Shown one piece after another: positions 37,349 to 57,930 of a stretch of DNA of 64,000 nucleotides; positions within the stretch are counted from its first letter, which is position 1; every line of letters begins with the position of its first letter. The translations under genes and the position numbers were made by a program. Source of the stretch: a virus; IMG/VR virus record IMGVR_UViG_3300028430_000572, positions 4,354 to 68,353 of that record; one strand, given 5' to 3'. A model generated the notes under the pieces. That model saw nothing but the letters and a program-made list of their open reading frames with translations, was not told the origin of the DNA and made no database searches.

Positions 37349-37405
37349 GCGCCAATATACGGGATCGGGAGCGGCGAAGTGAGTCGGTCGATTTCGTCAC
37401 GAAAT
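37349..37405 (-). promoter_or_regulatory. Class A promoter
   Basis: Palindrome 37391-37405; TATATT-N5-ATG, 43 bp spacing. Confidence 0.65.
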
Positions 37406-38116: not shown

Positions 38117-38117
38117 A

Positions 38118-38190
38118 AGCGGATGGACAGGGATCGAACCTTCCTCCCTCACTTGGTAAGTGAGTGCATCGCCGTTGATGCTTCATCCGC
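38118..38190 (-). tRNA. Non-canonical tRNA-Gly(ACC)-like RNA
   Basis: GCGGATG/CATCCGC-U73, D stem GCAT/ATGC, anticodon arm CTCAC-TTACCAA-GTGAG, T-loop TTCGATC; A8, C14 and a bulged T stem. Confidence 0.72.
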
Positions 38191-38226
38191 ACATTGGTTA
38201 CTGACTGCGAATCGATTAACGAGAAA

Positions 38227-38946: not shown

Positions 38947-39003
38947 TGAATTACTCCGCTTGATTTCGTGGCGAAATTGATGCGACTGCAAACGATCATA
39001 GCA

Positions 39004-40898: not shown

Positions 40899-41895
40899 GT
40901 TGATTGTCCATCGGGCGACCGCACGTTGGGCACTTGCGCGACATCGCCGCGAGTTGATTGTTCAATTCGGCAATGCGAAGCAACAATTGATCGCTCCGCG
41001 ACTCGGCATCTTCTGGAATCGCGGTAAGCGATAACAAAAACGATTCGACTGCTTCATGCTTCGATTTCGCTGCCTTGATTTTATCGAGCAGCGATTTGAT
41101 ATCGGCAATCGACTTTGACAACTCATCATGCCGCCGACTCATGCTTTCGATGTCGATGCTGCTATCGAACGTCGCGACAATATCGAGTGCTGCATCGCGA
41201 GCCTTCGCGTCGCGAGCGATGTCGCGTTCGGTCGATTCGATATCGGTAACAAGCGACTCGATTTTGTCGGCGTTGATAATCGCCGGGTCGGACTCGGCGG
41301 CAGACAGTCGCGATTCGGCATCTTGCATCATTTTCGATTTCGTATCGAAATCGCGAGCAGCGGACGCGGCATCCGTCTTTGCTCGCCCGGACGCTTCCAT
41401 CGCAATCGAAGCCCCTGACGCAGCGCCGATAATCTTGGCGACACGGCCAGCAGGATCATCGACAAGAATCGCGGCCTCGCGTTGTGTTTGGATGTTGAGC
41501 AAAATATCGATCCCGGCGATACGAGTCGGGCCGAGGCCGACAGTTGCAATCCAATCGTCGGGCAAGGACCGCCCCGGGTTCGTGAGGGATCGACGAGACA
41601 CTTTGCCCGTTTTCGCGTCTTTTGTCGATGCAACGTATTCGCCTTTGCCGTCAGACTTGCGAACGACCGATATTTGCTTGCCGTCTGCGAAGTCAACAAC
41701 GATCTTGCCTTCTTCAAATCCGTCCCTGACAAACGATGCGGCTGGCGAAGGATGTGAGCACGCCACAAGCGAGCGAACGATGTTGCTTTTGCCTGAGTCG
41801 GACGACCCGAAGATTACGCTCAGCCCTGGGCTAAGCGCAATGTCGGTCGATTCGTGCGAACGTACGTTCGTCAGTCTGATTCGCGAGATCGTCAT
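40885..41895 (-). CDS. SbcC/Rad50-like ATPase, N-terminal half
   Basis: LTNVRSH, Walker A GSSDSGKS, coiled coil ending in zinc hook CPTCG; no Walker B. Confidence 0.8.
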   Translation of the reverse strand: MTISRIRLTNVRSHESTDIALSPGLSVIFGSSDSGKSNIVRSLVACSHPSPAASFVRDGFEEGKIVVDFADGKQISVVRKSDGKGEYVASTKDAKTGKVSRRSLTNPGRSLPDDWIATVGLGPTRIAGIDILLNIQTQREAAILVDDPAGRVAKIIGAASGASIAMEASGRAKTDAASAARDFDTKSKMMQDAESRLSAAESDPAIINADKIESLVTDIESTERDIARDAKARDAALDIVATFDSSIDIESMSRRHDELSKSIADIKSLLDKIKAAKSKHEAVESFLLSLTAIPEDAESRSDQLLLRIAELNNQLAAMSRKCPTCGRPMDNQHAHK

Positions 41896-43053
41896 TTAGT
41901 CGTCCATCCCCGCGAGCATTACGCGACCCTTGACTTGCTGCTGCGACTTAATGCCTTTTGCTTCGTTCGATGCGACGGTTCGCTCCATCGCGTCGCGGAA
42001 CTTTTTGTCCGATCGCAGTCGCTCGATTACCTTGATCGCGCTGCCAAGATTGACCGCCTCGCGTCCCGGAGCAGCGATCGTGCAAGTGCGACCGTTCTTG
42101 ATTACGCCTGCTTCGACTGCGCGATCGAATAGTTCGACTTCGGCACTGATGCCTACACCGTGCCCGAGTTCATATGTCGCGACGTTGCCGCGAAGTCCTG
42201 TGACTTTGTTCTTCATGCAACGAATGTTGCAAATCTTCCCGGCAGAGAAGTATCCGGGCTTGTGCGATCCCGATACGTCGAGTTTGATTGCGTCGAAGTA
42301 TTCGGTCGCCTTGCCGCCGGGCGTTGTGCGAGGATCGCCGAACGCAACGCCAATCTTATCTCGCCACTGATTAATGAGAATGGTCGTGCATCCATTCCGA
42401 GCCATCGAGCCGGTCATGCGGCGGAACATTTTGTTGAGTTGTCGCGGGAGCAGTCCGACAGTGTTGCTCGCCATTGACAAGTCTTGCTCAGCGGCAGACA
42501 GCATCGCCGGGATCGAGTCTACAACGACGAGTCCGAACTCGCCGGTGTCACACAATGCAACGGCGATGTCTACGCCTTCTTCGAGCGTGGCCGGAGAATG
42601 CACAAAGAGATTGGCGCTATCGATATTTGCAATCTTCCCGTTCGTGTCGGCGACTGCAACGACGGCACTCGGAGCACACGCTTTGAGATACGTCATATCA
42701 AGCGTGTGCTCGAAGTCGAGGTAGAGCACTTTGCGAGGCACGGGCGTTGTCTTCATGCCTTCGGCAGAAGGCGACACGAACGTTGCGTCGGCGGGCTGCG
42801 ACATCACCGCCTCCGCGAGCGTGAACGCAAGAGTCGTCTTGCCGCTCGCGGCGTTGCCGACAATTTCAATCCAGTATCCAGAAGGGAGACCCGGGGATTG
42901 CTCGCCGCCGAGCAGCACGCCGAGCGACTTGTGACGCATCGGAACGATGCGCCGAGACGACGGCATAAACAGCGGCACGTCGAGTTGCTTGCGAAGCGCG
43001 TTGATTACGCCGTCGAGAGAATGACCGGCGACCTTGACTCGTTCTTTGCTCAT
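41896..43053 (-). CDS. recA: RecA recombinase
   Basis: GNAASGKT, VVVDSI, ILINQWRDKIGVAFGDPRTTPGG and KNKV motifs. Confidence 0.92.
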   Translation of the reverse strand: MSKERVKVAGHSLDGVINALRKQLDVPLFMPSSRRIVPMRHKSLGVLLGGEQSPGLPSGYWIEIVGNAASGKTTLAFTLAEAVMSQPADATFVSPSAEGMKTTPVPRKVLYLDFEHTLDMTYLKACAPSAVVAVADTNGKIANIDSANLFVHSPATLEEGVDIAVALCDTGEFGLVVVDSIPAMLSAAEQDLSMASNTVGLLPRQLNKMFRRMTGSMARNGCTTILINQWRDKIGVAFGDPRTTPGGKATEYFDAIKLDVSGSHKPGYFSAGKICNIRCMKNKVTGLRGNVATYELGHGVGISAEVELFDRAVEAGVIKNGRTCTIAAPGREAVNLGSAIKVIERLRSDKKFRDAMERTVASNEAKGIKSQQQVKGRVMLAGMDD

Positions 43054-43109
43054 GCTTGATATACCCCGAACTGCGAGCGATTATCGATGGTTTGATTTCG
43101 TCACGAAAT
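43054..43109 (-). promoter_or_regulatory. Class A promoter of recA
   Basis: Palindrome 43095-43109; TATATC-N4-ATG, 42 bp spacing. Confidence 0.6.
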
Positions 43110-43112
43110 TGA

Positions 43113-43769
43113 TTACTTGTTACGGGCGATTTCGTCCGCGTGAACTCGATTGGCGCACGTCAAGGCGATCGCGATTGCATCTACCGCGTGCTCGCCGAGC
43201 GTGTTGATGTTGCCGTTGTAAGTATGCCCGTAATCGCGGGCAAGTGCTCGCTGCACCGATACCTTGTCGGGCATCGAAGACTTGTATTTGATGCCGCGAT
43301 GTGCGGGCGATGCGAGCCAGTTTGCTTTCGACAATCCCGGCCATTGGGGGCAACAGAATACCTTGTGCTGGCGAGGGGTAATCGCGACTTTGTTTGCCGC
43401 GTCGAACGCTCGCGACATGCCCGAAGCGCGAGACGACCACCACGCCTTGATACCGAGCATTGCACAAGCAAGACCGATCCCGGCTTCTTCGCGTCGATTC
43501 ATAAAGCCGCGAGCGAATCCTTCGTACGCGATTACGTCGATGTGTGCTGGCGATCCGTTCTGCCGAAGGATCGAGATAGCGCGATTGCAAGATACCGTGA
43601 TTCTGTCAGGCAGATTGATCTTGGCCCATGCCGAGTGTTCGACCGATTGATCGGCCCAAAGAACTTTCGTCGTGTTGACATACGAATCGCAATCGATACG
43701 AACAAGCGCCATGCCGACGGACTTGATCGAGTGATCTACGCCGAGAACGTACTTGTAATTGGTCGCCAT
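43113..43769 (-). CDS. RuvC-like Holliday junction resolvase
   Basis: VLGVDHSIKSVGMALV, IAYEG and HAVDAIAIA motifs. Confidence 0.75.
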   Translation of the reverse strand: MATNYKYVLGVDHSIKSVGMALVRIDCDSYVNTTKVLWADQSVEHSAWAKINLPDRITVSCNRAISILRQNGSPAHIDVIAYEGFARGFMNRREEAGIGLACAMLGIKAWWSSRASGMSRAFDAANKVAITPRQHKVFCCPQWPGLSKANWLASPAHRGIKYKSSMPDKVSVQRALARDYGHTYNGNINTLGEHAVDAIAIALTCANRVHADEIARNK

Positions 43770-43818
43770 AAAGCGCCGGAATCGCTTTCGCAATCCCGGA
43801 GCCGATTTCGTCACGAAA

Positions 43819-44982
43819 TCAATCGAGCAGTTCGTCGTCAGTGCTCGCAGGCCGCGCGGTCGGCTTTGAGGGGCCGGGCCTGACAGCGGGCTTGGCGACG
43901 GGCTTACCGGGAGCGGGTCGCGCGACAGGCTTGGCGACCGGCTTAGCGACAGGCTTGGCGGGAGCGGGGCGAGCGGCGGGCTTCGGAGCAGGAGCAGGCT
44001 CGCCGAGCAAGTCGGCATCATCGTCGCCCGATTCCGCTTCGTCGCCGGTGTCGTCCGCTTCGTCGCCGGTGTCGTCCGCAACATCGCCGAGCAAGTCGGC
44101 GGCTTCGTCATCGGTGATTTCGGCCTCGGGCTCCGGCTCGGCCTGCTTCGCCGAGCGAGCATTGCGACGCGACGGAGCGGGAGCCTCGTCCTGCACGAGA
44201 TCGGACTCGTCGCCCTCGCTCGCCCCGCCGCCCATCATGCGAGCAATCGACGCTTCGAGTGAAGCCGCAGGCTCGGGCGCGATGTAATCGGCGAGCACTT
44301 GCCAAAGGCCCGGGTGCCACGGATCGCCGTCGGGGATGTCGGCATCGGACTCGGGATCGCGACTGCGGAGCATGTTGTTTTCCCGCACGATCGCAACGAC
44401 ATCTTTGAGCGAAGCAGTCGGGTTAGCGGCGACTTGGAAGTTCAACTCCTTGAACTTCTCTTTGCCGGGCACAAGCGACGCGACAAGTTCGACTTGTCGC
44501 AAGTGCTTCTTGCCTCCCTTGACGGGATCGGGAATCGAGTTGCGAAGAATCTCCCGCAACTGCACGAACTTGCCGCCAGCGAACCCCCAAGGGAGAATCT
44601 GATTGACCTTCTGCGTCCGCCCTTTGCTTGTCGTGGCGACGTGCGCAACGACCGTCGCGTAGCGCTTGGCGCGAGCAACGTTGGCGGGCGTGATAAGCCC
44701 GAGACGGAACAACGGGCAGCCAGCCTTGAGCGTGTCCCAATCGTTGTTCTGCAAAGCCTCATCGATCGCCCCCGCGTCCAGCACGGAATGGGCGAAGAAC
44801 CCGCTCGTGTCATCGGGCGACGAAACGCGCGTGCCGTAGTAGATAACGGGGTCGGCCAAGATGCGGAAGTGGTAGGTGCTGCCCTTGGTGCTCGGGTCGA
44901 ACGCCTCGGGACGCTCGATGTACCCGCCAGCGGTCACACTGTCATCGTCGAATCCGGTCGTCTTGATGTTCGGCTTACCCAT
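43819..44982 (-). CDS. Putative ssDNA-binding protein (gp32-like) with acidic and Pro/Ala/Lys-rich tail
   Basis: YHFRIL N-terminal domain; long acidic tract, KPVA repeats and terminal DDELLD; located in the recombination block. Confidence 0.6.
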   Translation of the reverse strand: MGKPNIKTTGFDDDSVTAGGYIERPEAFDPSTKGSTYHFRILADPVIYYGTRVSSPDDTSGFFAHSVLDAGAIDEALQNNDWDTLKAGCPLFRLGLITPANVARAKRYATVVAHVATTSKGRTQKVNQILPWGFAGGKFVQLREILRNSIPDPVKGGKKHLRQVELVASLVPGKEKFKELNFQVAANPTASLKDVVAIVRENNMLRSRDPESDADIPDGDPWHPGLWQVLADYIAPEPAASLEASIARMMGGGASEGDESDLVQDEAPAPSRRNARSAKQAEPEPEAEITDDEAADLLGDVADDTGDEADDTGDEAESGDDDADLLGEPAPAPKPAARPAPAKPVAKPVAKPVARPAPGKPVAKPAVRPGPSKPTARPASTDDELLD

Positions 44983-45003
44983 CGTTCTTGCCTTTCGATT
45001 GAA

Positions 45004-45498
45004 TCAAACACGGTACCCGGACACGCTGCCCGGGGATTGCTCATTCATGCGGCGAATCGCGTTGAGCGTTTCCTTCATTTGCTCATTGGATTTGATCGCC
45101 GAGTCTATTTGCTCCATGACCATTGCGAGATCAGTGACGCGAGCGCGGGCGACCGCCAACTGTGCTGCCACGTCTTGCGTAATCGCGTCAACTTCTGCCA
45201 TCTTGTCGGATCGATTTCGCAGCGAAATCACAACGGGATCGGACATCGCCTTGCTACGTTCAACTCGATTAAGTTCGGAGAGCAGATGTACCCTGCGCCG
45301 CGCTTCGGCGAGCAGCGGGGCGGTCTTGAGTTTCAGTGCGTCGAGCGATTGTCGCTTCGACATGCAATCGAGCATTTGGACGGCCAGCCCTGCGAAGTCG
45401 ATTTCTTCGCCCGGCTGAGGCGTGCGGACTCGCGGGACGAGCGACGCGAGCCGCTGCGCGAGTTTCGTCCAGTTCACTTTTGGTATGGCTTGGCTCAT
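45004..45498 (-). CDS. Helical protein, UvsY-like recombination mediator candidate
   Basis: 164 aa, all-helical; adjacent to the SSB and RecA genes. Confidence 0.4.
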   Translation of the reverse strand: MSQAIPKVNWTKLAQRLASLVPRVRTPQPGEEIDFAGLAVQMLDCMSKRQSLDALKLKTAPLLAEARRRVHLLSELNRVERSKAMSDPVVISLRNRSDKMAEVDAITQDVAAQLAVARARVTDLAMVMEQIDSAIKSNEQMKETLNAIRRMNEQSPGSVSGYRV

Positions 45499-46118
45499 TG
45501 CACAGTGACGCGAGAAACGTTGTTCGTCCGGGTGACAAATATACGAGTCGAAGCGGACGCGGCGAGTTCTGGTTCGTGAGAAACAACGATGATCTGTACT
45601 TTGAGTTCGTCCGCGAGCCTGCGAACCATTTGCGCGACGTAGCCCATTCGATCAGAAGACACGTGCCGGAACGGCTCATCCGCGATGATGATCGGCGCAA
45701 CCGTGCGGCGGCTCATCGCAACGACCGACAATCGCAGTGCGAACGCCACGACATCGACAACGCCGCCGCCGACATCAGCGAGCGAACGCCACGCGATCGA
45801 CTTGCCGACGGTGTAGCCGACGAGCGGGGTCATTTCGATTTGGCCCCGACGCTGGGCGACTTCGAGTTGGAAATGCACGCCTTGCCCAAACGCGATCGCG
45901 AGCGCGAGCCCGACCACTCGCTCGATCCGCTGCCTGATCGCCGATCGGGACGCATCGGCGACGGCGAGTAGCATCGCTGCGGCATCGGCGGCAACAGCGG
46001 CCTCGTGTTCGGCGGTGTCGCGCGCAGCACGGGCCGCGTCCGCGTCGCGTCGTGCTGCCGCAACGGCCCCGCGTGCCGCTGCGACGATATCAAGCGCCCG
46101 TCGCGTTGTCGTGCTCAT
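45495..46118 (-). CDS. SbcC/Rad50-like ATPase, C-terminal half
   Basis: Coiled coil, signature VGGG, Walker B IIIADEPF and H-loop VVSHE. Confidence 0.82.
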   Translation of the reverse strand: MSTTTRRALDIVAAARGAVAAARRDADAARAARDTAEHEAAVAADAAAMLLAVADASRSAIRQRIERVVGLALAIAFGQGVHFQLEVAQRRGQIEMTPLVGYTVGKSIAWRSLADVGGGVVDVVAFALRLSVVAMSRRTVAPIIIADEPFRHVSSDRMGYVAQMVRRLADELKVQIIVVSHEPELAASASTRIFVTRTNNVSRVTVQ

Positions 46119-46423
46119 GGGTGCCCCGACCTGCCCGCCTCATCGCGTGCGGCGGCGATGTCGGTAAGCGTCGCGTCAAGTGCTGCGGCCATCTTGGCGA
46201 GCCTGCCCTCGGCTGCGGCAATACGCTCGCCGAGCGTTGTCGCGGCTGCCCCGATCGCGGCCACGGGATCGTCGCCCGGATCGATACTCATCCGTTGGCA
46301 GAAATCGCTCGCTCGCTTGCGGTCGGATTCGTGGGCGCGAAGCGTCGCCGTGATCTCGGCGAGTTCCCGTTCGGCGGCGGCGATGCTTCGCCGCACGCTG
46401 TCGGTTTGTATCGGAGTGCTCAT
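46115..46423 (-). CDS. Small coiled-coil protein
   Basis: Leaderless ATG 46423; ATGA overlap with the SbcC C-terminal gene. Confidence 0.6.
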   Translation of the reverse strand: MSTPIQTDSVRRSIAAAERELAEITATLRAHESDRKRASDFCQRMSIDPGDDPVAAIGAAATTLGERIAAAEGRLAKMAAALDATLTDIAAARDEAGRSGHP

Positions 46424-46480
46424 GCCACGATATATCGGGCTCGCGTGCTTATCGTGCGTCGGTCGATTTCGTGGCGAAAT
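46424..46480 (-). promoter_or_regulatory. Class A promoter (near-identical to 62693..62749)
   Basis: 53 bp identical to the copy near 62.7 kb; 43 bp spacing. Confidence 0.7.
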
Positions 46481-46481
46481 G

Positions 46482-46513
46482 AAAACCGCCCGGCGTGGCG
46501 ACGCGCCGGGCGG
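46482..46513 (-). terminator. Intrinsic terminator
   Basis: Minus strand CCGCCCGGCG...CGCCGGGCGG followed by TTTT. Confidence 0.7.
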
Positions 46514-46550
46514 CGATGCGGGGCTCAGCCCCGGACAGGATCGGCGTAGG

Positions 46551-46868
46551 TCATTCGTCGTCGGACTCAGGATCGGGCGAGATGTCCAGTTGCTCGTTCG
46601 CCCGGCGGTACAAAGTGTGCCCCAGCGATTCGAGCACGGTCCGCGCGTTGCGTTGCACGCTGCCCTCGGTGCCCGGGGCGTTGAGTCGGGCAAGGCATCC
46701 CTCGATCAAGTCCTGCTCGTTGTGGCCCGACCAGACGTTGAGATCGTGCGATTCTCGCCAGTCTTCGCCGTAGTGCTTCTCGGGGTCGCTGCAAACCCGG
46801 CCCCTCATCGCGCAGTGGTCGGCGTAGATCGCGACTTCCACCCTGCTGTCGTTGTTCGGCGTGCTCAT
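46551..46868 (-). CDS. Hypothetical protein
   Basis: AGGAG RBS at the end of a repeated leader element. Confidence 0.6.
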   Translation of the reverse strand: MSTPNNDSRVEVAIYADHCAMRGRVCSDPEKHYGEDWRESHDLNVWSGHNEQDLIEGCLARLNAPGTEGSVQRNARTVLESLGHTLYRRANEQLDISPDPESDDE

Positions 46869-46877
46869 TCGTCGTGC

Positions 46878-46962
46878 TCCTGTCAGTTTGCCCGATCGGC
46901 CCGGGCGTGCCTTGGGGCGTTGTGCCTCGGAATCCGCCCGGGGCGCTTTCGCGCCCCGGGCG
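46878..46962 (-). repeat. Structured intergenic leader repeat, copy 1
   Basis: Near-identical to 53483..53566; hairpins ending in GACAGGA (RBS). Confidence 0.8.
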
Positions 46963-46982
46963 TTCGTGTCCTTCGTCCCGCG

Positions 46983-48119
46983 TTAGGCCAGCGACTTGCG
47001 GATGTTCTCCAACTCGGTCGCCACGTCCGTGGCACTCACCTTGGCGAAGGCCTTGGCGATCGCCTTGGCGAGATCGAACTTGGCGAAGTCGGCGGGATCC
47101 GTGTGGATCGAGATGCGGGCCGTGATCGTGTGGCCGCCCTTACCGCCCTTGTCCGTACCCGTCTCGCGCTTGAGTGTGACGGCGATGCCGGTCGCGTCGA
47201 AGTTCAGCGACGCGGGCGACACCGAGCCTACGCTCGGCTTCCGCCCGGCCTTGCCCGCCGCGCGGCGGGTGCCAGACGACTGCACCGCCGAGTTCGCGGC
47301 GGCGGCGGTGACGGCCTTGCCGTTGCTCGCCTCAAGCAGCGTGCGGAGCATGGATTCGAGTTCGGCGGCGGTGCTGGCCTTCGTCGCGAGACGATACGCG
47401 ACTTCGGGCGAGATCAGGCCATCCGCGAGCATCTGCTCCAACAACTTGCCGGACTTCGCGGCGAGGGAGATCGCCTTGCTGATCTGCGCGGTCGAGATAC
47501 CGAGGGCCTTCGCCGCGTCGGCTTGGTCGGTAAACATTTTCGTGGCGATAGCGTCTTGCACCTGCTTCGCGAGTTCGAGCGGGGAGATGTCGGTCCGCGC
47601 GACGTTTTCGGCGATGGTCATGGCGAGCGTCGCGGCCTCGGTGCTCGCGAGCACTTCGCCGGTCTTCGGATGTACGGCGTACTGGGCCGGAATCTTGTCG
47701 TAGCCGAGCAACTTGTAGGCCGCGAGTCGGCCATCGCCGCAGACAACTCGATTGTCGCTACCGATCGTGATCGCGTGCCGCAGGCCGGTCGCCTTGATCG
47801 ACTTAGCCAGCATCTTGATCGACTCTTCGGAGTGATTGCGGCTGCCGTTGGGCGCGATCGACGCGACCGGGAACATCTGCCCCATGTGCGGGCCGGACCA
47901 CTCAACTTCGCCGCCCTCGTCCGTGCCCTCGGGCTGGGCCTCCTCGTTGGCCTCGTCGTTGGCCTCGTCGCTGGCCTCGTCGCCGCCCTCGGGCTGGGAC
48001 TCGTCCTGCGTCGGCTCGTCGCCGCCGAGCAGAGCATCCGCGTCCTCGTCGTCGATGAGCGTGGACTGCGAGTCCTGCTGGGCCTGATTCTTGCGGCTGC
48101 CGTTAGTCTTCTTCGCCAT
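46983..48119 (-). CDS. ParB/Spo0J-family DNA-binding protein with HTH
   Basis: LAKSIKATGLRHAITI, VCGDGRLAA, ENVARTDISPLE, HTH DQADAAKALGISTAQISKAI; acidic N-terminal extension. Confidence 0.85.
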   Translation of the reverse strand: MAKKTNGSRKNQAQQDSQSTLIDDEDADALLGGDEPTQDESQPEGGDEASDEANDEANEEAQPEGTDEGGEVEWSGPHMGQMFPVASIAPNGSRNHSEESIKMLAKSIKATGLRHAITIGSDNRVVCGDGRLAAYKLLGYDKIPAQYAVHPKTGEVLASTEAATLAMTIAENVARTDISPLELAKQVQDAIATKMFTDQADAAKALGISTAQISKAISLAAKSGKLLEQMLADGLISPEVAYRLATKASTAAELESMLRTLLEASNGKAVTAAAANSAVQSSGTRRAAGKAGRKPSVGSVSPASLNFDATGIAVTLKRETGTDKGGKGGHTITARISIHTDPADFAKFDLAKAIAKAFAKVSATDVATELENIRKSLA

Positions 48120-48236
48120 TGTCGTCTCCTGCGGGTCGACCCGCGTCAGTTTGCCCGAGTCGCTCGGGCGAGCGTTGGGGCATCGCGCCCCGAATCCGCC
48201 CGATGGCTCGCTTCCGCGAGCGGGGCGGGATGTGCG

Positions 48237-48521
48237 TCAGTGCACGACGATTTCGATATCCATCATCCCGGCCACGCTCACGGTCACGCTGCCGCCTTTG
48301 ATCGCGTCGCCCTTGACGCTCATGGCCTGCCCGTTTTCGATCGACACCCGAGCGATCTGCACAAGATCGGTCGCGGGGATCTTGACCCCGAAAGCCCCGT
48401 TGGTAGTGCCGGTGATGTCGGCGGTCTGAGTCTTGCCGCCGACCGTCACATTCACGCGGTTGGCCTTGTCGAGCATGAGGACCACGCGGCGGGTCATCTT
48501 CGTGCTGGTCTTGGTCGTCAT
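48237..48521 (-). CDS. Hypothetical protein
   Basis: AGGAG RBS; 94 aa, beta-rich. Confidence 0.6.
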   Translation of the reverse strand: MTTKTSTKMTRRVVLMLDKANRVNVTVGGKTQTADITGTTNGAFGVKIPATDLVQIARVSIENGQAMSVKGDAIKGGSVTVSVAGMMDIEIVVH

Positions 48522-48587
48522 TCGTCTGCTCCTGTCGTGCCCTGTCCGCCGGGCTCGCGTGTCGGGGTCATTCGCCCCGACCCCATA

Positions 48588-48671
48588 AAGATACCCGACA
48601 TTCACGCATCGGGCGACAAATCGGGGCTCGATTTCGTGGCGAAATTGCCAAATCCCCCATTTGCGGGGGTC
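48588..48671 (-). promoter_or_regulatory. Class B promoter repeat
   Basis: GACCCCCGCAAATGGGGGATTTGGC + palindrome + TATCTT 43 bp from the palindrome; shared with 51306..51389. Confidence 0.65.
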
Positions 48672-49336
48672 GTACCCCGGTTATTCGTGCGATATCCGGG
48701 GGCGGGTCGGGGCGGGCGACGATGCCCCGCGACCGGCGACGATGCCCCGGGGCGGGCCGATGTGCGGGGCGACCCGCTGCACGCATCGGGATCGGGAGCG
48801 AGCCACGGCGAGTCGTCGGGCGGCAGGACGAGCCGTACTCCTGCCGCATCCTCAGCATCGAGCGTTTCGGCTCGCGTGAGCCTCACGCCGAGTTCGTGCG
48901 GATACCAGTGCCAGCCGCGAGCATCGCGCAAGGTCGGCCCGAGCGGCAAATCCATCCCGCTCGGCGTGTGGCCTTCGGGCACGCGACCCGTCGCGATCGC
49001 GGCGACGTTCAAGAATCGAAGCCACTGCATTTCCCGCCACGATGTCGGCGAGTCGCTATGGCTTTGCAGCGCAAACATCCCGACGGGCAGCCTCGCCGTC
49101 TCGATCGTCTGCCCGTCGGCATCGACGCGCGCGACGCGCAGCACTTGGGAGTCGTTGTCGGGCTGGGACTCGGTAACGATCATCGCCACGGCGAATCGCA
49201 CGCCGTACTGGATCGGATGCACGAGCGGGATTCGTCGCCCGATCAACTTGCCGCGCGACTCGGCGACGGCTTGACGCTCGGCGGCGCTGGCGGCGACAGT
49301 ATCGAAATCGCGATAGGCGGTCTGCTGCATGGTCAT
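48602..49336 (-). CDS. Hypothetical protein
   Basis: AAGGAG RBS; C-terminus runs through the promoter repeat. Confidence 0.55.
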   Translation of the reverse strand: MTMQQTAYRDFDTVAASAAERQAVAESRGKLIGRRIPLVHPIQYGVRFAVAMIVTESQPDNDSQVLRVARVDADGQTIETARLPVGMFALQSHSDSPTSWREMQWLRFLNVAAIATGRVPEGHTPSGMDLPLGPTLRDARGWHWYPHELGVRLTRAETLDAEDAAGVRLVLPPDDSPWLAPDPDACSGSPRTSARPGASSPVAGHRRPPRPAPGYRTNNRGTTPANGGFGNFATKSSPDLSPDA

Positions 49337-49362
49337 GCTCCTTGGGTGTGCGGAAAGATTCG

Positions 49363-49611
49363 TCAGCGAATCGGACGCTCATCGCGAGCGGCGGTGTCGG
49401 TCGCGTTCAGGATCAGCCCGGCAGCGAGCACGGACAACGCGAGCAAGCCGAACGCCACGCCAGCGACGACGAACGCGACGCGAGGCCCGTAGATCGCGAA
49501 TGCGAGCAGCAGGGCAAGCGTCGCGCCAATGGCGAGGCCGACAACGGGATTTTGGATGCGAGCGGGACGAACGGGGCGGCGAAGTCGAATCCGTGCGATG
49601 CGATGGCTCAT
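49363..49611 (-). CDS. Small two-TM membrane protein
   Basis: Two hydrophobic helices; AGGAG RBS. Confidence 0.55.
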   Translation of the reverse strand: MSHRIARIRLRRPVRPARIQNPVVGLAIGATLALLLAFAIYGPRVAFVVAGVAFGLLALSVLAAGLILNATDTAARDERPIR

Positions 49612-49713
49612 GGCCGATCTCCTGTGGCCCCTGTCCGCCGGGGCTCGCGTCTGCCCAATATACGAGCAATCCGCCGCGAGCGCGTCAGCACGCGCGGCGA
49701 TTTCGTGGCGAAA

Positions 49714-51243
49714 TCAGAGCGAGTCGTAGATATCGGCGACCGGGGCATCCTCGAAGCACGACGACGACCAAACCTTATCGGCGAAGGTGCGGGTCTGCTT
49801 CGCCATGTGATCGGAGCAACCGATTAGCATCGCGAAGATCGAAGCGCCGCGCGTAGCCCGTAGCGAGTTGAGGCGATCGATTGTGGACTTGCCGATCGGC
49901 CCTTCGCCGTCGGTCAGCATGAGCACGTCGGCGCGTTCGTACTTGGCCGAGGCGATCATGTCCGCCGCGCGGCAAAGCGGCGGGTCGAAGTTTGTCCCGC
50001 CGCCTGTACCCCGGCGAGCGAAGGCGGCAAGCGTCCGATCGGCGAGCGAGATACCCGCCGATCGCGTCGAAGCGTCGCGAGCGAGCACCGAAAATTCGGC
50101 AGTGACCGAACCTTGGAAGCACACGCACGCCCAGTCACGATTCTGACGCGCGGCGACATTCGCCAGCGCGAGCGAGATGGCCTTGGCCTTCGCCTCGTTC
50201 TGCCCGCTCATAGATCCCGACTCATCGAGCAGCACGATAATCGGCCCGCGACCTTGCGGCTCTTTGTGCTCAACTTCGTATGAAGCGGCAGCAGCATCGG
50301 CAAGGCGAGCCATTGCGAGCAATCGGCGCGGGCGAGACGGCGAGCAGAGTTCGACCAATTCCTCGTCAAGCAGTCGGGCGGGATCATCGCCCAGCGTGAT
50401 ATCGACGATGGCCCCGGCATCGTGCCGGCACTTCGCGGCCTGCTTGTCAAGCGCCGTCGAAGTCTCGCGCCCCAAGATTTCGAGCAGCCGCCGAAACTTC
50501 GGCCCGGCGTTCTTTACGGCATTGGCAAGTCGAATCTTCTCGGACACGGGCAGCCCGCCCATAGCCTCAGAGGAGCCGAGCCCGAACAATCGCGCGGCCT
50601 GCTTGACGGCCTGAGCATCGTCCACGGCCTTGCCCATCGCGCGATCGACTACCTTCGCCATGCTCGCGCCGTTCTCGCTGATCGCACGACCGAGATCGCT
50701 CGCGGCGGCGTTGGCACGGGCCTCAGCACGCTCGGCGTTTTCGCGCTGGTCGATGATGTCGCTCGGGTCCGCGTTTTCGTCGCTCGCCATCATCTCGGCA
50801 AGAGCCTTCGCATCATCGGCCTCGGCCTTCGCCTCGGCGGCGTTCTTCGCGGCCTTCTGCACTTCGTCGGGAGTCGCTTGGCACACTTCGCAAGCGATCG
50901 AAGCCACGCCGAGCGCTGCGGCGAGATCGTCGCCAACCGTGTGCTGGCGGAGCGTGTAGTACTGGTCATGCTTGCGGAGCCGGTTCGCGAGATCGCGAGC
51001 GAGCGCCGATCCGTTGCCCGAATCCTGCGGGCGATGCTTGGCGAGCAAGTTGAACGCATCGAAGCCGAAAGATTCAACGACCGGGCCGGGGAGTTTGGTA
51101 CGATACTGCGATTCAAGGGCCTCGTTCATCGCGCCGCACGAGTCGCGTGCGGCGGCGAATGAGATTTCGTCTACCCGCGTGTGCTTTATCGCTTGCCCGT
51201 TCGGGTCGAATCGCTTGGCGGGCGTTTGTGTCGGCGTGTCCAT
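49714..51243 (-). CDS. VWA-domain protein (ViaA-like)
   Basis: MIDAS DESGS, GGTNF and LTDGE motifs. Confidence 0.88.
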   Translation of the reverse strand: MDTPTQTPAKRFDPNGQAIKHTRVDEISFAAARDSCGAMNEALESQYRTKLPGPVVESFGFDAFNLLAKHRPQDSGNGSALARDLANRLRKHDQYYTLRQHTVGDDLAAALGVASIACEVCQATPDEVQKAAKNAAEAKAEADDAKALAEMMASDENADPSDIIDQRENAERAEARANAAASDLGRAISENGASMAKVVDRAMGKAVDDAQAVKQAARLFGLGSSEAMGGLPVSEKIRLANAVKNAGPKFRRLLEILGRETSTALDKQAAKCRHDAGAIVDITLGDDPARLLDEELVELCSPSRPRRLLAMARLADAAAASYEVEHKEPQGRGPIIVLLDESGSMSGQNEAKAKAISLALANVAARQNRDWACVCFQGSVTAEFSVLARDASTRSAGISLADRTLAAFARRGTGGGTNFDPPLCRAADMIASAKYERADVLMLTDGEGPIGKSTIDRLNSLRATRGASIFAMLIGCSDHMAKQTRTFADKVWSSSCFEDAPVADIYDSL

Positions 51244-51305
51244 CGTCGTCTCCTGTCTGCCCGATCCGCTCGGGCGTGCGTCGTCGCGTGCATCGCGACA
51301 CCATG

Positions 51306-51389
51306 AATGTACCCGCCATTCGCGACCCGGGCGACAAATCGGGGCTCGATTTCGTGGCGAAATCGCCAAATCCCCCATTTGCGGGGGTC
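51306..51389 (-). promoter_or_regulatory. Class B promoter repeat
   Basis: About 60 bp nearly identical to the 48.6-kb copy; TACATT 43 bp from the palindrome. Confidence 0.65.
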
Positions 51390-51395
51390 AAGTGT

Positions 51396-52004
51396 TTATC
51401 GATCTGAGCGTGCGGGCAAAGCGTGTCCGAGCCGCCCGTTTCGCCGCATCGTCGCGAGCGTGTCCGCGAGCACTCGCATCCGCCGCGTCGCCGTCGGCGG
51501 GTGTATACCCGCCATCTTCGCGGCGTGCGTGATCGAGCGCGCTCCGTGCGCAATCGCGTAGATGAGGGCATGGTCCTTGTCGTCTGCCATCGCGAGCACG
51601 GCCTCGGCTTCGGCGAATCGATCGGGGTCCGAACTCGCGAGCGTCGCCGAGATCATCGCGAGCGAATCGCCGCCCGGTTGCTCGCGCGTTCGCGGGCGAC
51701 GCTTGAGGAATTGCTTGTAGCGTGCGCAGATGAATTGTGCATCGGCGTTGCCGGTCGCCTTGCGCCGATCGAACCATGCCGACCAGACGCGGCGGCGATC
51801 CGCCATGAACTCCACGAACGCGGAAATCGATTCGTCAGCGTCAGTCCCGATCGGCGTGAGCGAAGCGAGCAACGCGCGATTGGCGGCGACCCACTCGAAG
51901 AACTGCACGATGGTCATGCTGGCCCACGCGGGCCGAGCGTGCCGCCGGATGATCGCGAGCAAGTTGTCGGTCGGGAAGTCGAGGCGAGAAAACGGGCGTG
52001 CCAT
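51396..52004 (-). CDS. Sigma-factor-like / C-terminal HTH transcription regulator
   Basis: C-terminal RSITHAAKMAGIHPPTATRRM resembles sigma region 4; 202 aa (ECF-like size). Confidence 0.55.
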   Translation of the reverse strand: MARPFSRLDFPTDNLLAIIRRHARPAWASMTIVQFFEWVAANRALLASLTPIGTDADESISAFVEFMADRRRVWSAWFDRRKATGNADAQFICARYKQFLKRRPRTREQPGGDSLAMISATLASSDPDRFAEAEAVLAMADDKDHALIYAIAHGARSITHAAKMAGIHPPTATRRMRVLADTLATMRRNGRLGHALPARSDR

Positions 52005-52118
52005 GTGCGATGTCCTGTCTCGCCCCGATCCGCCCGGGGCTCGCGTGCGGGGCGTTGTGCCCCGAAGCGAGCGGGACGGCGCTGGCCGTCCCGCTCGTGA
52101 TTTCGTCGCGAAATCGGC

Positions 52119-53474
52119 TTAGCCGATATTCATCGCGGCCAAGTCTTCGAGTGCCAACCCGCCGTCGCGTCCCTGCGCGACCTTCGCGATGATGCCGGTA
52201 AGTTCGTCGATAGCCGTCCGCGTATCGGCAAGCAGCACGCGGTCGTCCGCATCCTCGGCATCGCTTGCGAAGATGTCGAGTTTCGCGGCGGCGGAATTCA
52301 TGGCCGAGTGTGACTTGAGTGCCGCCGATGCCGCCGCGATCAGGTCCACCGACTTGCCCGGGTCGCGAGCCGGGCCGACGTTTGCAGCCTTGAGCAACGC
52401 CGCGCGCTCTTCGCGGACTTCTTCGAGCAGGCCGCGCACGCCGTGAGCGAAGGGCGACAGATACGCCGGGAGAACTTCGCGGATCGTGCCCGCGTCCTGG
52501 TCAGTGTTCCACGCGATCATGGCGAGCGGGGCAAGGTCTTTGCTGATCGCGGCAGTACGGCCCGCGAGCACGGCGTAGGCGCGAATGATGCGGATGGCCT
52601 GCACCCATCGGCGGTCGGAAATCTGCACGCCCTTCGTCGCGAGCGTGCGGCGAATCTGCCCGAGCGGCTCGATGATTCGCGACACATCGACCGCCGCCAC
52701 GAGCCGGTCCATTTCGGCGAGATCGGTATCGGTGAACTTCACAGGGCAGGCCGCAGGAGCGGGCGAAGAGACAGTGCCGAGCATCCGCGAGAAGTCGGCA
52801 TCGTCGAGCGGGCGGACTGTCAGTTTAATCGGGAATCGGTCGAAGAACGCCGCGAGCAGGGCGGGGTCTTCGGGGTATTCATTGGACATCCCAACAAGCG
52901 TGCGAGTCGGAGTCGCGTGCATCTGCCCGTTGTCGGCGAACTGCCGTTCATTCGCGATTCGGAGCAGCGCGTTCAAGATTGCAGACGAACCTTTGAATAC
53001 TTCGTCGAGGATGCCGACCTTGGCGCTGGGCAGGAAGCCCGCAGTCTTCGTACGAGTCTCGCCGCGCTCAAGTGCCGCGATGTCGATAGGGCCGAATACT
53101 TCGGCAGGCCGCGAGAACTTCGACAGCAGCACATCGAAAACATCGCCCGGCTGATCGGCGAAGGTGCTCGCCCACTTCTGGGCGACCATCGTCTTGCCGG
53201 TGCCGGGCGGGCCGAGCAGGAGCACGTTTGCTCGGGCGAGCACGCCGAGCGTCATGGCTCGCACCACTTCGTCGCGCCCGATGGCCTGAGATCGGACCCA
53301 CGCCTCGGCGGCTTTGATCCGCGCAACGAGATCGGGATTCGCGATCGCGGCGGGCTTCGGGGCGGCGGGCTTGGGCTGAGCCGTCGCGGCGGGCCTCGGC
53401 GTGCTGGGCAGCCGATGCTCAAGGGGAGTCGAGCCGGGCTTGCGGGTCGGGGGTTTGGGGAGATTTGTCGCCAT
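52119..53474 (-). CDS. MoxR/RavA-family AAA+ ATPase
   Basis: GPPGTGKT, ILDEVFKGSSAILNALL, SNE, FFDRF and ISDRRW motifs. Confidence 0.9.
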   Translation of the reverse strand: MATNLPKPPTRKPGSTPLEHRLPSTPRPAATAQPKPAAPKPAAIANPDLVARIKAAEAWVRSQAIGRDEVVRAMTLGVLARANVLLLGPPGTGKTMVAQKWASTFADQPGDVFDVLLSKFSRPAEVFGPIDIAALERGETRTKTAGFLPSAKVGILDEVFKGSSAILNALLRIANERQFADNGQMHATPTRTLVGMSNEYPEDPALLAAFFDRFPIKLTVRPLDDADFSRMLGTVSSPAPAACPVKFTDTDLAEMDRLVAAVDVSRIIEPLGQIRRTLATKGVQISDRRWVQAIRIIRAYAVLAGRTAAISKDLAPLAMIAWNTDQDAGTIREVLPAYLSPFAHGVRGLLEEVREERAALLKAANVGPARDPGKSVDLIAAASAALKSHSAMNSAAAKLDIFASDAEDADDRVLLADTRTAIDELTGIIAKVAQGRDGGLALEDLAAMNIG

Positions 53475-53482
53475 AGGTGATG

Positions 53483-53566
53483 TCCTGTCAGTTTGCCCGA
53501 TCGGCTCGGGCGTGCCTTGGGGCGTTGTGCCCCGAATCCGCCCGGCCTGCTTTCGCGGGCCGGGCG
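53483..53566 (-). repeat. Structured intergenic leader repeat, copy 2
   Basis: Near-identical to 46878..46962. Confidence 0.8.
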
Positions 53567-53576
53567 GGGCGTTGTG

Positions 53577-53954
53577 TCAGTCGATCGCGCTGCCAACTTC
53601 GGCCATGCTCGTCGTGCCGATTGTCCAACAACCCATCGCGTTTGCCGTAGCGATCATCGTGCCGACCGATTCGCGCAACGCACGATACTGCCCGGCGAGA
53701 TTTTCGATTTGCGGCATTCCTTGAAGGATGCCGTAGGGATTCAACTCGTGAGCATTTCCGGCGAGCACCCGCTCGGCGGCGCGATCGAGTTCGCGGCGTT
53801 CGCTGGCGATGCGGCGAGCGAGCGTCGCGGCGACGCGATCCATCTCGCGAAGCGTGAGATAGGTGCCGCTCAAGATATGCCCCTGCGGCGTGTCAATCTT
53901 GGTGTCGCCCATCATGGCCCGCACGGAGTCGCTCGTGATTTTCTTAGTCGTCAT
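53577..53954 (-). CDS. Hypothetical protein
   Basis: First gene after the class B promoter at 54.0 kb. Confidence 0.55.
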   Translation of the reverse strand: MTTKKITSDSVRAMMGDTKIDTPQGHILSGTYLTLREMDRVAATLARRIASERRELDRAAERVLAGNAHELNPYGILQGMPQIENLAGQYRALRESVGTMIATANAMGCWTIGTTSMAEVGSAID

Positions 53955-54020
53955 TTGTCGTCCCTGTCGTGTGCCCCTGTCCGCCGGGGCTCGCGTTGTC
54001 GGTCGATCGCCGACACCATG

Positions 54021-54104
54021 AATATACACCATATCGACGAGCCGGGGTACAAATCGCGGTCAATTTCGCCGCGAAATCGTCAATATCCCTCAATCGCGGG
54101 GGTC
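54021..54104 (-). promoter_or_regulatory. Class B promoter (diverged copy)
   Basis: GACCCCCGCGATTGAGGGATATTGAC + palindrome 54063-54077 + TATATT 42 bp away. Confidence 0.6.
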
Positions 54105-54164
54105 GATGCCGCGATGCGGGCAAAATATCGGCGATCGAGCACCCCCGCGATTGGGGGATACGGC

Positions 54165-55811
54165 TCACGCCCCATGCCCCAATTCTCGGGCGATCGCGTC
54201 CGCCGCCCGCTCCCGCGCGTTGCCGGAGATCGTCGAGCCCGTGGCCTCATCGATCGCCCCGAGGGCCTCGGCGGGATGCTCATCGGGATCTGAGCCCTCG
54301 GGCATATCGACGATCATCGATACGATCCCGCGAGCCCTGAGCGTCGCGGCGGACTCGCTCGCTCCGAGTCGGCCCGCCTCGTCGCCGTCGGCGAGCACTA
54401 CCGCTCGATCAATCTTGAGCCGACGCAGCCACTCGGCCTGCCGAGCCGTGAGTCGCGATGAGCCGACCGCGAGCACGGGCGGGCAAGCGCGACGAGCGGC
54501 GAGCGCGAGTCGCTTATCGAATCGCGCGGCGGGATACGGCGAGCGGAGTTTGTGCTGATCGCGCAGCACGCGGCGGAACATCGCCATCTCCACCGCCGCC
54601 GCATCGATCGGCCCCTCCACGAGCACGGCCACGCCATGAGCGGCGGCGCGGATCATCGTCTGCGGGCTTCGCCACTGGAACGATGAGCCCTTGGAGTAGA
54701 TCCATGAGTTCGGCGTAGACCACCATTTCGGCGTGCGGTCGCCGTCGAGATCGCGAGCACCGAAGCCGATTGGAGTGCGGCCCGAGATCGATAGGATCGG
54801 GACGACGAGCCGCCCCGCGAGTTTGTCGGCAAGCGCCCGGGTCATCGCGAGCGGCGGGGTCGAGCCGTTAATTTGTGCGCGGGCGCGCTCGGCCTGCTTG
54901 AAGAGTTGCTCGGCATCGCCGAACACTTGAAACGGCATCATCGGCGTATTGAGATCGTCGGACGGGATGCGGCGATCGATGATGTTCGGCGTGCCAAACT
55001 CGCGGAAGCCGACGTTGAATATCCGCTTGCGTGCCATATATCGCGAGAGCATGATGTCGGCGGTCTGCCGGTCATCGTCGAACCCGGACCTGCTCGGGCT
55101 GCCGAGTATCGCGTTGTCGAGAAGCCAAGATAGATATCGCTCTTGCAGAGATGCAATTGCGTTGTGATGCTCAAGTCCGACTGTTGATCCGTTGCCGGTC
55201 GCGTGCGACCATTTGAGGTTTGTATCGATCGGAAACGATTTCGTCACGAAATCGAATCCGGTCTTTGCGGACACGCATTCGAGCCTGTGAAACATCCCGG
55301 CCATTTTCGCTGGCTCGGGCCGCATCTGGCACTCTTCGCGATCGCGGACAATTTTGTCCCACGCGCGATCGATCGTTTGCATGATCGGCGGATCGTAACT
55401 GGCCTGCTTTCGATCTTCGATGATCGTACGAAATCGGTCGATAGCATCATCGATTACGTCGCCGTCGCTGTCGTCGGTGATGCCGAGTCGAGCGGCGAGG
55501 TTCGCGATGGCCTTGCCTTTCGCGAGCCCTTCGGCGTGCGCGATGTAGTCGATTACATCGCCGCCAACTGCGCACGAGAAGCAGTGCCAACGATCGTCGT
55601 AAAGGTGCAGCGTCGCCCTGCTCTTGCTTGTCTTCGAGCAGGCGGGGCACGGGTGGTTCGCTTCTTTGCGAGAGTAATCGAAGCCGTAAGCGATCGCGGC
55701 CTTGACGATATCGAGTCGCTGCTTGATAAGCCCGGCAACGCGAGAAATGTTGCGTATCGGCACTTCGCAGGTTATCGAGTCGTCATCGAATGAAGCCGTG
55801 TTGATCGACAT
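54165..55811 (-). CDS. dnaG: DNA primase
   Basis: Zinc finger CPAC ... WHCFSC-GGDVI, IGFGAR, TOPRIM VEGPID and DGDEAG. Confidence 0.9.
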   Translation of the reverse strand: MSINTASFDDDSITCEVPIRNISRVAGLIKQRLDIVKAAIAYGFDYSRKEANHPCPACSKTSKSRATLHLYDDRWHCFSCAVGGDVIDYIAHAEGLAKGKAIANLAARLGITDDSDGDVIDDAIDRFRTIIEDRKQASYDPPIMQTIDRAWDKIVRDREECQMRPEPAKMAGMFHRLECVSAKTGFDFVTKSFPIDTNLKWSHATGNGSTVGLEHHNAIASLQERYLSWLLDNAILGSPSRSGFDDDRQTADIMLSRYMARKRIFNVGFREFGTPNIIDRRIPSDDLNTPMMPFQVFGDAEQLFKQAERARAQINGSTPPLAMTRALADKLAGRLVVPILSISGRTPIGFGARDLDGDRTPKWWSTPNSWIYSKGSSFQWRSPQTMIRAAAHGVAVLVEGPIDAAAVEMAMFRRVLRDQHKLRSPYPAARFDKRLALAARRACPPVLAVGSSRLTARQAEWLRRLKIDRAVVLADGDEAGRLGASESAATLRARGIVSMIVDMPEGSDPDEHPAEALGAIDEATGSTISGNARERAADAIARELGHGA

Positions 55812-57873: not shown

Positions 57874-57930
57874 CGGCCAATATACCCGAACTGACGGTGA
57901 TTTGACGGACGATCAATTTCGTGGCGAAAT
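57874..57930 (-). promoter_or_regulatory. Class A promoter
   Basis: Palindrome 57916-57930; TATATT-N5-ATG, 43 bp spacing. Confidence 0.65.

Follow-up and report, generated by a model that had tools for sequence, protein, structure and literature searches.

A ParB-like gene was recognized at 46983..48119 (minus strand, stop codon included) of a 64,000-nt stretch of DNA from an uncultured freshwater phage. This stretch, hereafter the window, comprises bases 4354-68353 of the 68,353-bp IMG/VR virus record IMGVR_UViG_3300028430_000572, and coordinates follow its numbering unless marked genome. The gene is an open frame of 378 aa with the top coding score of its neighbourhood. Judging from its sequence, the product is a partner-less (orphan) ParB/Noc/KorB-type protein. 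The same genome carries dozens of exact copies of an interrupted palindrome, and the protein is considered here as its candidate reader. In comparisons with related IMG/VR records (G001-G005), the window phage is labelled G000.

In Pfam search, the 378-aa protein gave sub-threshold matches to ParB_N (E 0.0046, 17.4 bits against a gathering cutoff of 26.3) and to the helix-turn-helix (HTH) domain HTH_ParB (E 0.0076, 16.8 bits against 22.6). ParB-like families of PHROGs were matched at 6.6e-14 and 1.6e-13. A profile of 29 family members was compared with the PDB, and Noc was the best match (7nfu, 1.2e-24), followed by Spo0J (1vz0, 1.6e-21). The ParB proteins of H. pylori (4umk), M. xanthus and Caulobacter were also matched, and KorB (8qa8) more weakly at 8.2e-7. 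The profile alignment also covers the HTH in Noc, Spo0J and H. pylori ParB. The AlphaFold model from the single sequence was poor, i.e., a predicted local distance difference test (pLDDT) score of 51. With the family alignment, pLDDT was 76.5 overall and approximately 85-95 over residues 80-378. In Foldseek search with the alignment-based model, ParB, Noc and KorB structures ranked first, and the probability for ParB/Noc was 1.00. In the BFVD fold search, a protein with 89% identity was returned from an uncultured Caudovirales phage, along with many other phage ParB/Spo0J-HTH proteins. An earlier note on this DNA had read the gene as ParB/Spo0J-type with an N-terminal domain and an HTH, and the PHROGs, profile and fold searches bear this reading out.

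Residues 75-378 were searched with phmmer against 1.84 billion cluster representatives, and 1477 matches were found at E<=1e-3, 29 at <=1e-10 and 14 at <=1e-30. Approximately 28 of them align over the full length at 25-41% identity and form a separate family, all of it metagenomic, whose representatives sit on Logan, ENA, NCBI and JGI contigs of at most 110 kb. By its sequence relations, the family is distinct, not previously characterised, and a core gene in a group of uncultured phages. Its members share a basic tip (MAKK...), an acidic low-complexity stretch, the ParB N-domain, the HTH, a basic linker (GRKP) and a conserved C-domain. In the window protein, the basic tip and the acidic disordered region take residues 1-75 (47895..48119, minus strand; pLDDT below 50). 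The ParB N-domain, i.e., the ParB-CTPase fold, lies at residues ~80-176 (47592..47882, minus strand) according to the family alignment, A1, and the alignment to Noc and Spo0J. The HTH comprises residues 199-221 (47457..47525, minus strand), modelled as helices at 199-206 and 210-221, and the recognition helix is T210-A221 (TAQISKAISLAA). The C-domain at residues ~295-378 (46986..47237, minus strand), delimited from A1, is composed of beta strands and two helices with pLDDT ~76-90, and it is presumed to mediate dimerisation.

Other searches returned few relatives. In tblastn against INPHARED, no match was found with the 378-aa protein, and ParB_N fragments only with family member P0019. Single-protein scans of IMG/VR with the ParB, coat and MoxR proteins gave no matches, and a word-based protein search gave only three near-identical proteins. 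The A2 pattern was found zero times in IMG/VR and in two unrelated Parvibaculaceae ParBs in genome_contigs, where family member P0014 had no match. A metagenome scan found only distant ParB_N proteins (L030-L036). The A5 pattern scan recovered the same four related records again and two unrelated ParB_N proteins.

No ParA was recognized among the 68 of 79 open reading frames (ORFs) scanned with PHROGs and Pfam, the set to which later statements on recognized gene families refer. In six-frame search, the ParA family PF13614 was matched in 0/5 phage records and in 14/14 control genomes, and the ParA-binding motif [LFI]G[KR]G[LFI] was found in 0/29 family members. The missing parA, remarked on before for the window, is thus a feature of the whole genome. 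ParB-fold proteins encoded outside parAB operons are termed orphan ParBs, and some of them bind ATP or GTP (PMC12704722). A second ParB-like protein of 254 aa is encoded at 38227-38991 (minus strand). It has a ParB N-domain only, without an HTH (phrog_620, 2.3e-28), and its gene is directly upstream of a Mom-like DNA-modification gene at 37397-38152 (minus strand; Pfam Mom, 3.5e-28). This protein is conserved in G001 and G005 and was undetected in the 47%-GC lineage described below.

In the nucleotide pocket, Box II departs from the canonical form. It reads G128-D-G-R131-L-A-A134 (GDGRLAA), exactly the arginine patch that the earlier note had picked out; the family consensus is GNTRLAA, and the canonical GERRxRA is not present. 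In alignment A1, I108, G128, R131 and A134 are invariant, so that within Box II only G128, R131 and A134 are fixed. R94 and G112-L113 of Box I, and N172 and R175 of Box III (E171-N-V-A-R175), are kept in at least 90% of the A1 rows. The Q of the canonical QPR stretch aligns to a gap in the family when compared with Noc, and the E position of Box II is also not kept; judging from PDB titles, these two are the catalytic residues of canonical ParB. The GxxR core is kept in Box II of the window protein. In a survey of the ParB-CTPase fold, GxxR is named the core P-motif, and nucleotide preference is described as not predictable from sequence or AlphaFold3 (PMC12704722). Given its degenerate Box II, the phage protein may use another nucleotide than cytidine triphosphate (CTP), or none.

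The palindrome ATTTC-N5-GAAAT was found in 42 copies in the window, whereas 0.19 were expected and the largest shuffle gave 2. These copies span 1227..62749 with a median spacing of 1,486 bp. The whole 68,353-bp genome has 47 copies, and every one is ATTTCG-N3-CGAAAT. The flanks carry the symmetry on to TCGATTTCG-N3-CGAAATCGA in most of the 47, and the half-site centres are 10 bp apart. Copies with 0, 1 and 2 mismatches number 47, 0 and 3, against 0.03, 0.7 and 6.3 in shuffles. The sole variable part is the central triplet, i.e., CCA in 22 copies, TGA in 7 and TGG in 6 on the coding strand.

For parS the consensus reads TGTTTCAC-GTGAAACA, and for NBS, i.e., the Noc site, it reads TATTTCCC-GGGAAATA; positions 1 and 6 of the half-site distinguish the two (PMC7383237). 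The phage ATTTC/GAAAT arms equal the arms of NBS, with 5 instead of 4 bases between them (PMC7383237). The description given before, of a parS/Noc-like palindrome in dozens of copies with a centre 1 bp longer, holds for both the window and the genome. The exact 16-mer was found in 19 IMG/VR contigs with one copy each, which is chance level. The 17-mer pattern was found in bacterial genomes as single scattered occurrences among the matches listed, and this bears neither way on a host factor. No Rfam family matched the palindrome. Several other roles were considered for the element and rejected. All-or-none exactness is a misfit with an UP element or another contact of the host RNA polymerase. 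An N4-type hairpin promoter would need a virion RNA polymerase, and none is encoded among the scanned ORFs. The palindrome is too long for a restriction or methylation site, and such a site would be avoided, whereas the palindrome is enriched.

The copies avoid gene interiors: 15 of the 47 lie inside ORFs, against 86% of the genome that is ORF interior (p 1.5e-17). Several copies overlap the stop codon of the upstream gene or sit 3-30 nt ahead of the next start. A TATATY-like box was found after 14 copies, at 30-31 nt in 11 cases and at 36-37 nt in three, and the start codon is mostly 5 nt on. A fifteenth copy, at 54077, has a TATATT box at 36 nt. Counted from the boxes, 13 of the 16 coding-strand TAYAYY-N4-8-RTG sites have a palindrome within 60 nt upstream, at 31 nt in nine cases and at 30, 36, 37 and 23 nt in one case each. 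The spacers between palindrome and box vary in sequence and are equal in length; therefore, the spacing is constrained and not copied. No -35-like element was found at the box cassettes, and they are not picked up by the sigma-70 consensus scan. The palindrome ends 8 nt ahead of the place that a -35 hexamer would take. With the boxes taken as putative promoters, the cassettes (TATATY, 5 nt, ATG; many sites at 26521-62703) imply leaderless mRNAs made without a -35 element. In some cassettes, the box lies in the loop of a local inverted repeat, e.g., GCCGCG...CGCGGC. Outside the window, at genome ~3968, a tRNA-like sequence was seen by eye with a palindrome copy before it and a TATACT box 7 nt on.

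The ParB transcription unit is headed by a palindrome copy at 48631..48645 (minus strand), with TATCTT after 37 nt. Directly upstream of the ParB start, a GC-rich leader with three hairpins was found at 48120..48225 (minus strand; repeat families D12 and D14). Leaders of this kind, which measure approximately 95 nt, have three hairpins and share the conserved end GGGCAAACTGAC, occur at 46869-46970, 48120-48225 and 53475-53575 (minus strand). They precede the 105-aa gene at 46551..46868, the ParB gene and the MoxR gene at 52119..53474, respectively. Their consensus fold has 23 pairs, two with compensatory changes. The gene had been placed earlier in a repeated-leader region; what directly precedes it is this three-hairpin leader, an element separate from the palindrome, and not the palindrome itself. 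The unit ends in an intrinsic-terminator-like hairpin at 46485..46514 (minus strand; 11 pairs, then a T run). Straight after it comes a palindrome copy at 46466..46480 (minus strand), with TATATC after 31 nt and ATG 5 nt later. Because a terminator stands directly before this copy, the palindrome is not itself the terminator and is part of the downstream promoter-like cassette. The reading of the palindrome as an intrinsic terminator was rejected on this ground and for the lack of a T run. The palindromes closest to the ParB gene are 512 nt upstream and 503 nt downstream, and the sites are evenly spread, not clustered at the gene. The locus belongs to a GC-rich island at ~44000-56000, with 62-67% GC against 53-60% over most of the window. 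This island carries the ParB, MoxR and VWA genes and the palindrome cassettes of the 36-37-nt spacing class.

Related phages were recovered from IMG/VR by large-terminase alignment (41-43% terminase identity). They are G001 (55 kb, 68% GC), G005 (89 kb, 64% GC), and G002, G003 and G004, which are overlapping pieces of one 47%-GC lineage. In six-frame profile search, the ParB family member was found with E 1e-64 to 1e-112 in G001, G004 and G005 and also in G002, where it is truncated by the start of the contig. G003 is a fragment ending before the ParB region, so the family member is present in four of the five records. The gene is syntenic in the relatives, i.e., between MoxR-VWA and the C-terminal half of a Rad50/SbcC-like ATPase, within a conserved replication/recombination block. 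The small genes flanking it in the window (48237..48605 and 46551..46868) have no counterpart in the relatives.

In a de novo count of interrupted palindromes, each lineage showed its own form, i.e., gATTTCG-N3-CGAAATc in G000 (47 copies), tATTTCa-N3-tGAAATa in G005 (31 copies), tGTTTC-N5-GAAACa in G001 (15 copies) and aATTGCg-N3-cGCAATt in G002 (18 copies). All four are far above shuffles and avoid ORF interiors. G005 and G001 are all-or-none like G000, and in G002 six copies with one mismatch were counted where 2.7 would be expected. TGTTTC, the arm in G001, is identical to the six outer bases of the parS consensus half-site, and TATTTC, the arm in G005, to those of the NBS consensus half-site (PMC7383237). 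The commonest left half in G005, TATTTCAC, is one base off parS. In all four lineages, a copy is found at the ParB ORF or within approximately 500 nt upstream of it, which is weak evidence given the site density. Co-occurrence of protein and motif in relatives had been proposed earlier as a check, and its outcome is favourable: the four lineages all carry a syntenic ParB wherever the region is on the contig. Among 45 more distant terminase relatives, no ParB family member was found (8 records were at least 90% complete), and repeats of this kind are missing from their loci, where the top counts were 1-3. A fifth lineage (L168, the 17-kb IMG/VR fragment G011, with the ParB region off the fragment) has GATTTG-N3-CAAATC at 374, 5114, 10632 and 13502.

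The recognition helix also differs between the lineages, i.e., TAQISKAISL in G000, TPIISKAVAI in G001, TSILNRSVTI in G005 and TSRVSRAISR in G004. The ParB proteins of G001 and G005 are 62% identical overall and share 6/12 residues in this helix, and their sites are one arm base apart. Two extra arginines are found in the helix of the lineage whose arm gains G. The covariation of HTH and motif that the earlier note had proposed to check is present in so far as arms and helix both change from lineage to lineage. These differences are compatible with co-evolution, and at four lineages they amount to a hint.

The best explanation of the palindrome, at a probability of about 0.5, is that it is read by the phage ParB-like protein. 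The strongest single argument is that the one HTH protein shared by the lineages is ParB/Noc-like and that the arms are parS/NBS-like; no other recognizable sequence-specific DNA-binding protein common to the four lineages was found. Exact arms with a free centre, the 10-bp distance between half-site centres and the fixed distance to a -10-like box suggest a duplex operator for a ParB-like dimer. The same is suggested by AT-rich sites kept across 47-68% GC and by weak RNA hairpins. The phage ParB protein and the palindrome probably form a reader-site pair, and the earlier interpretation is supported in this part. From the sequences we infer DNA binding, dimer formation and an effect on transcription. 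In such a scheme, ParB-like dimers would bind the 17-bp gATTTCG-N3-CGAAATc through the HTH. The sites would be parS/NBS-like half-sites spread by one bp and placed genome-wide at about one per 1.5 kb. The most likely job would be a KorB-like genome-wide control of transcription, exerted from just upstream of the -35 position and at gene boundaries. As a second possibility, the protein would coat the phage DNA or mark it.

Several observations weigh against this explanation. ParB and Noc share the DNA contacts Q162, G170, K171, S172, N178 and R204 (PMC7383237). In all four lineages K171 is replaced by I/V, N178 by K/R and R204 by Y/V/D, and Q162 is kept in two of the four; S172 is kept in 4/4 and G170 in 3/4 (C in G004). 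Four of the six canonical contact residues are thus replaced. The residue R/Q173, which tells G from A at site position 1, is T in 4/4 lineages regardless of the site base. At the Noc specificity positions Q173, K179, K184 and R201, the window protein has T, A, A and E, respectively. A Noc-like reading of the site, as first proposed, is not supported in view of these replacements, and because the contacts are not kept, the parS/NBS likeness of the sites is not explicable by inherited contacts. The phage half-sites are also one bp wider apart than in all characterised ParB sites compared. Because Box II is degenerate, CTP-clamp behaviour of the phage ParB, as proposed earlier, is unsupported and doubtful. 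Co-occurrence is confounded with phylogeny: only four lineages are available, and any core gene would co-occur just as well. The reader could also be one of the many core proteins to which no function is assigned. Finally, the central triplet is strand-biased, with CCA against TGG at 22:6 in G000 and 24:2 in G005. A symmetric dimer on duplex DNA would not predict such a bias, and a strand-specific (RNA or single-strand) reading is hinted.

This bias, which is relative to transcription, is the starting point for a different account, i.e., that the palindrome acts as a single-stranded hairpin of mRNA or DNA at gene junctions. Its reader would then be an RNA-binding regulator or a processing nuclease, or the element would spread in a REP/RAYT-like manner, and the role of ParB would be unrelated. 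The many copies that abut or overlap an upstream stop codon shortly ahead of the next start fit this account, as does the pairing preserved through arm changes between lineages. However, these are weak, AT-rich hairpins within genomes that are rich in GC, and the RNA hairpin of the G005 palindrome (-3.4 kcal/mol) is no more stable than random 23-mers (-3.6 +/- 2.7). Position 6/10 is often unpaired in G001 and G005, and one-base variants, even G-U-compatible ones, number zero in G000, G005 and G001. Some 15 copies are not part of that transcript, because they precede promoter-like boxes at a constant distance. No Rfam family matched, and no RNA-binding protein or Y1 transposase was recognized. 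The hairpin account is considered quite unlikely. It is also conceivable that the site is a duplex-DNA operator whose reader is an unannotated core phage protein or a host factor, while the ParB-like protein serves the replication/recombination module. The lost ParB contacts agree with this, and so do the position of the gene within the conserved replication/recombination block and the share of ORFs, approximately half, without a family assignment. A phage-encoded reader is favoured by the finding that the four lineages, with their wide range of GC and probably different hosts, keep the same site geometry. The arms of two lineages equal the outer half-sites of parS and NBS, and no other shared HTH protein was found. 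This alternative is judged unlikely. The 202-aa protein at 51396..52004, named earlier as a sigma-like rival reader, was rejected as general reader, because it has weak HTH matches only and no counterpart in the relatives.

It is highly improbable that the protein is an ordinary partition ParB from a plasmid-like prophage and that the palindromes are its centromere sites. The protein has the ParB fold with HTH and C-domain, and phage N15 offers a precedent for dispersed centromeres with its four separate inverted-repeat sites (PMC7205306). On the other hand, ParA and the ParA-binding motif are missing throughout, no integrase, repressor or plasmid replication gene was recognized, and the 15-47 sites of each phage are evenly spread instead of being gathered by the gene.

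The ParB-like protein as candidate reader of the palindrome has a close parallel in KorB with its operator OB on IncP plasmid RK2. In both systems, a ParB-family HTH protein is encoded and a palindrome occurs at many places of the replicon, and KorB controls transcription (PMC11790492). The likeness extends to the family profile match and to the fold match with 8qa9 (TM 0.69 by target). It also extends to placement, because palindromes accompany 13 of the 16 promoter-like boxes, themselves putative, ten of them at 30-31 nt. The CTP pocket of KorB is canonical, and the variants R117A and N146A are defective; KorB also works with KorA and is part of a partition system (PMC11790492). The phage protein differs in its degenerate Box II, in the absence of ParA and in that no conserved small partner gene was found in the relatives. 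The phage itself shows no sign of lysogeny and has 15-47 sites, depending on the lineage.

Noc carries an N-terminal membrane helix. The N-terminus of the phage ParB consists of the basic tip and the acidic disordered stretch, with no recognizable membrane helix. Noc is the best sequence match among solved structures, and the ATTTC/GAAAT arms are shared. Like the phage protein, Noc of Bacillus is an orphan with dozens of dispersed sites and no ParA (PMC7383237, PMC8429893). It differs in the four bases between the NBS arms, against five in the phage, and in its specificity residues and K171, N178 and R204, which the phage does not keep.

Among phages, the nearest precedent for the sites is a published case. 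Cluster O mycobacteriophages carry TGTTCGG-N3-CCGAACA, with 34 invariant copies in Corndog and about 1/3 of them inside genes (PMC4351075). As in the window phage, the geometry is 7-3-7, more than 30 invariant copies are found in a ~70-kb genome and many are intergenic; a ParB-like protein is encoded, with no integrase and no parAB (PMC4351075). The authors predicted a dimeric DNA-binding protein without naming it, did not link the repeats to gp90 and left their function unexplained (PMC4351075). The arm, TGTTCGG, is different, and the authors report no orientation bias and little link to promoters (PMC4351075). Corndog gp90 has 502 aa, with ParB_N (Pfam, 2.7e-6) and an HTH-like stretch that aligns to the phage ParB family. 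In comparison with the family profile, N-domain and HTH were aligned at an hhalign probability of 94% (E 1.3e-7), as a remote relative. BLASTP of gp90 against the phage ParB was not significant, and Cluster O and the window phage have no close shared genes. In positions 50000-69777 of Corndog (L037), 21 copies of the Cluster O repeat were counted. It is reasonable to consider gp90 a candidate reader of the Cluster O repeats. More tentatively, an orphan ParB with lineage-specific docking palindromes could be a recurrent phage system. One protein would load at dozens of exact sites, one per 1.5-3.5 kb, mark or coat the chromosome and set transcription at -35-less promoters and gene junctions, and the Cluster O repeats would be explained through gp90.

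In temperate phages, the immunity repressor binds stoperators, which are 13 bp long and asymmetric. Those of Cluster A mycobacteriophages, e.g., L5, are like the phage sites in that dozens of them lie in short intergenic gaps, oriented with transcription and served by one DNA-binding protein (PMC4351075). The phage system differs by its palindromic site, by the lack of a recognized repressor or integrase and by a candidate reader that is ParB-like. VirB of Shigella and BisD of the integrative and conjugative element (ICE) ICEclc are also partner-less ParB-like proteins of mobile elements; they are CTP clamps and regulate genes from specific sites (PMC10653881, PMC12409273). They act from few sites on plasmids or ICEs, and their CTP dependence has been demonstrated (PMC10653881, PMC12409273).

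ParB proteins that act outside partition, i.e., Noc, KorB, VirB and BisD, are a current topic, and a 2025 survey describes many phage orphan ParBs without a known job or site (PMC12704722). The family found here comes with a precise candidate site and a promoter context. The four natural protein-site pairs, 1-3 arm bases apart, make specificity and function directly testable. If the sites are the operators of a genome-wide regulator in a phage without signs of lysogeny, the mode of control would be unlike the classical repressor, sigma-factor and phage-polymerase schemes. A hypothesis would also be supplied for the Cluster O repeats, unexplained since 2015, in culturable phages. The system had been called possibly undescribed. 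For the protein family and the phage group this stands, as neither was described before; palindromes together with a ParB-like protein are already published for Cluster O (PMC4351075), and ParB regulators with dispersed sites are known. In the open-access literature, supplements aside, no paper tying a phage orphan ParB to genome-wide palindromes was found.

The 68,353-bp record has 141-bp direct terminal repeats, and every confidently coding ORF is on the minus strand. By PHROGs and Pfam, genes for replication and repair were identified, i.e., DNA polymerase III alpha, DnaB, primase, 5'-3' exonuclease, SNF2 helicase, RecA and a Rad50/SbcC-like ATPase encoded as two halves. Genes of DNA and nucleotide metabolism encode ThyX, two N6/N4 methyltransferases and the Mom-like protein, and a MoxR ATPase with its VWA partner is also present. 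Virion and packaging genes were found for terminase, portal, a MuF-like protein and a P22-type coat protein. The terminase and coat protein are only ~30% identical to those of the nearest cultured phages. No RNA polymerase was recognized among the scanned ORFs. Near-identical sequence is contained in freshwater metatranscriptome libraries, and contigs from four of them cover the ParB gene; such contigs carry no information on strand, level or transcript ends, DNA carry-over is possible, and expression is not implied.

The N-terminal half of the Rad50/SbcC-like ATPase (AAA_23/SMC_N) is encoded at 40885-41895 and the C-terminal half (SMC_N) at 45495-46118, both on the minus strand. An interval of approximately 3.6 kb, which holds RecA and three unknown genes, separates the two halves, and this layout is conserved in the relatives. 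At 27662-27935, an 18-nt unit is repeated 11 times in tandem within the gene 27450-27989, which matches the YdcK beta-solenoid repeat. Two adjacent tRNA genes were identified at 28831-28976 (minus strand; Rfam, 65 and 55 bits).

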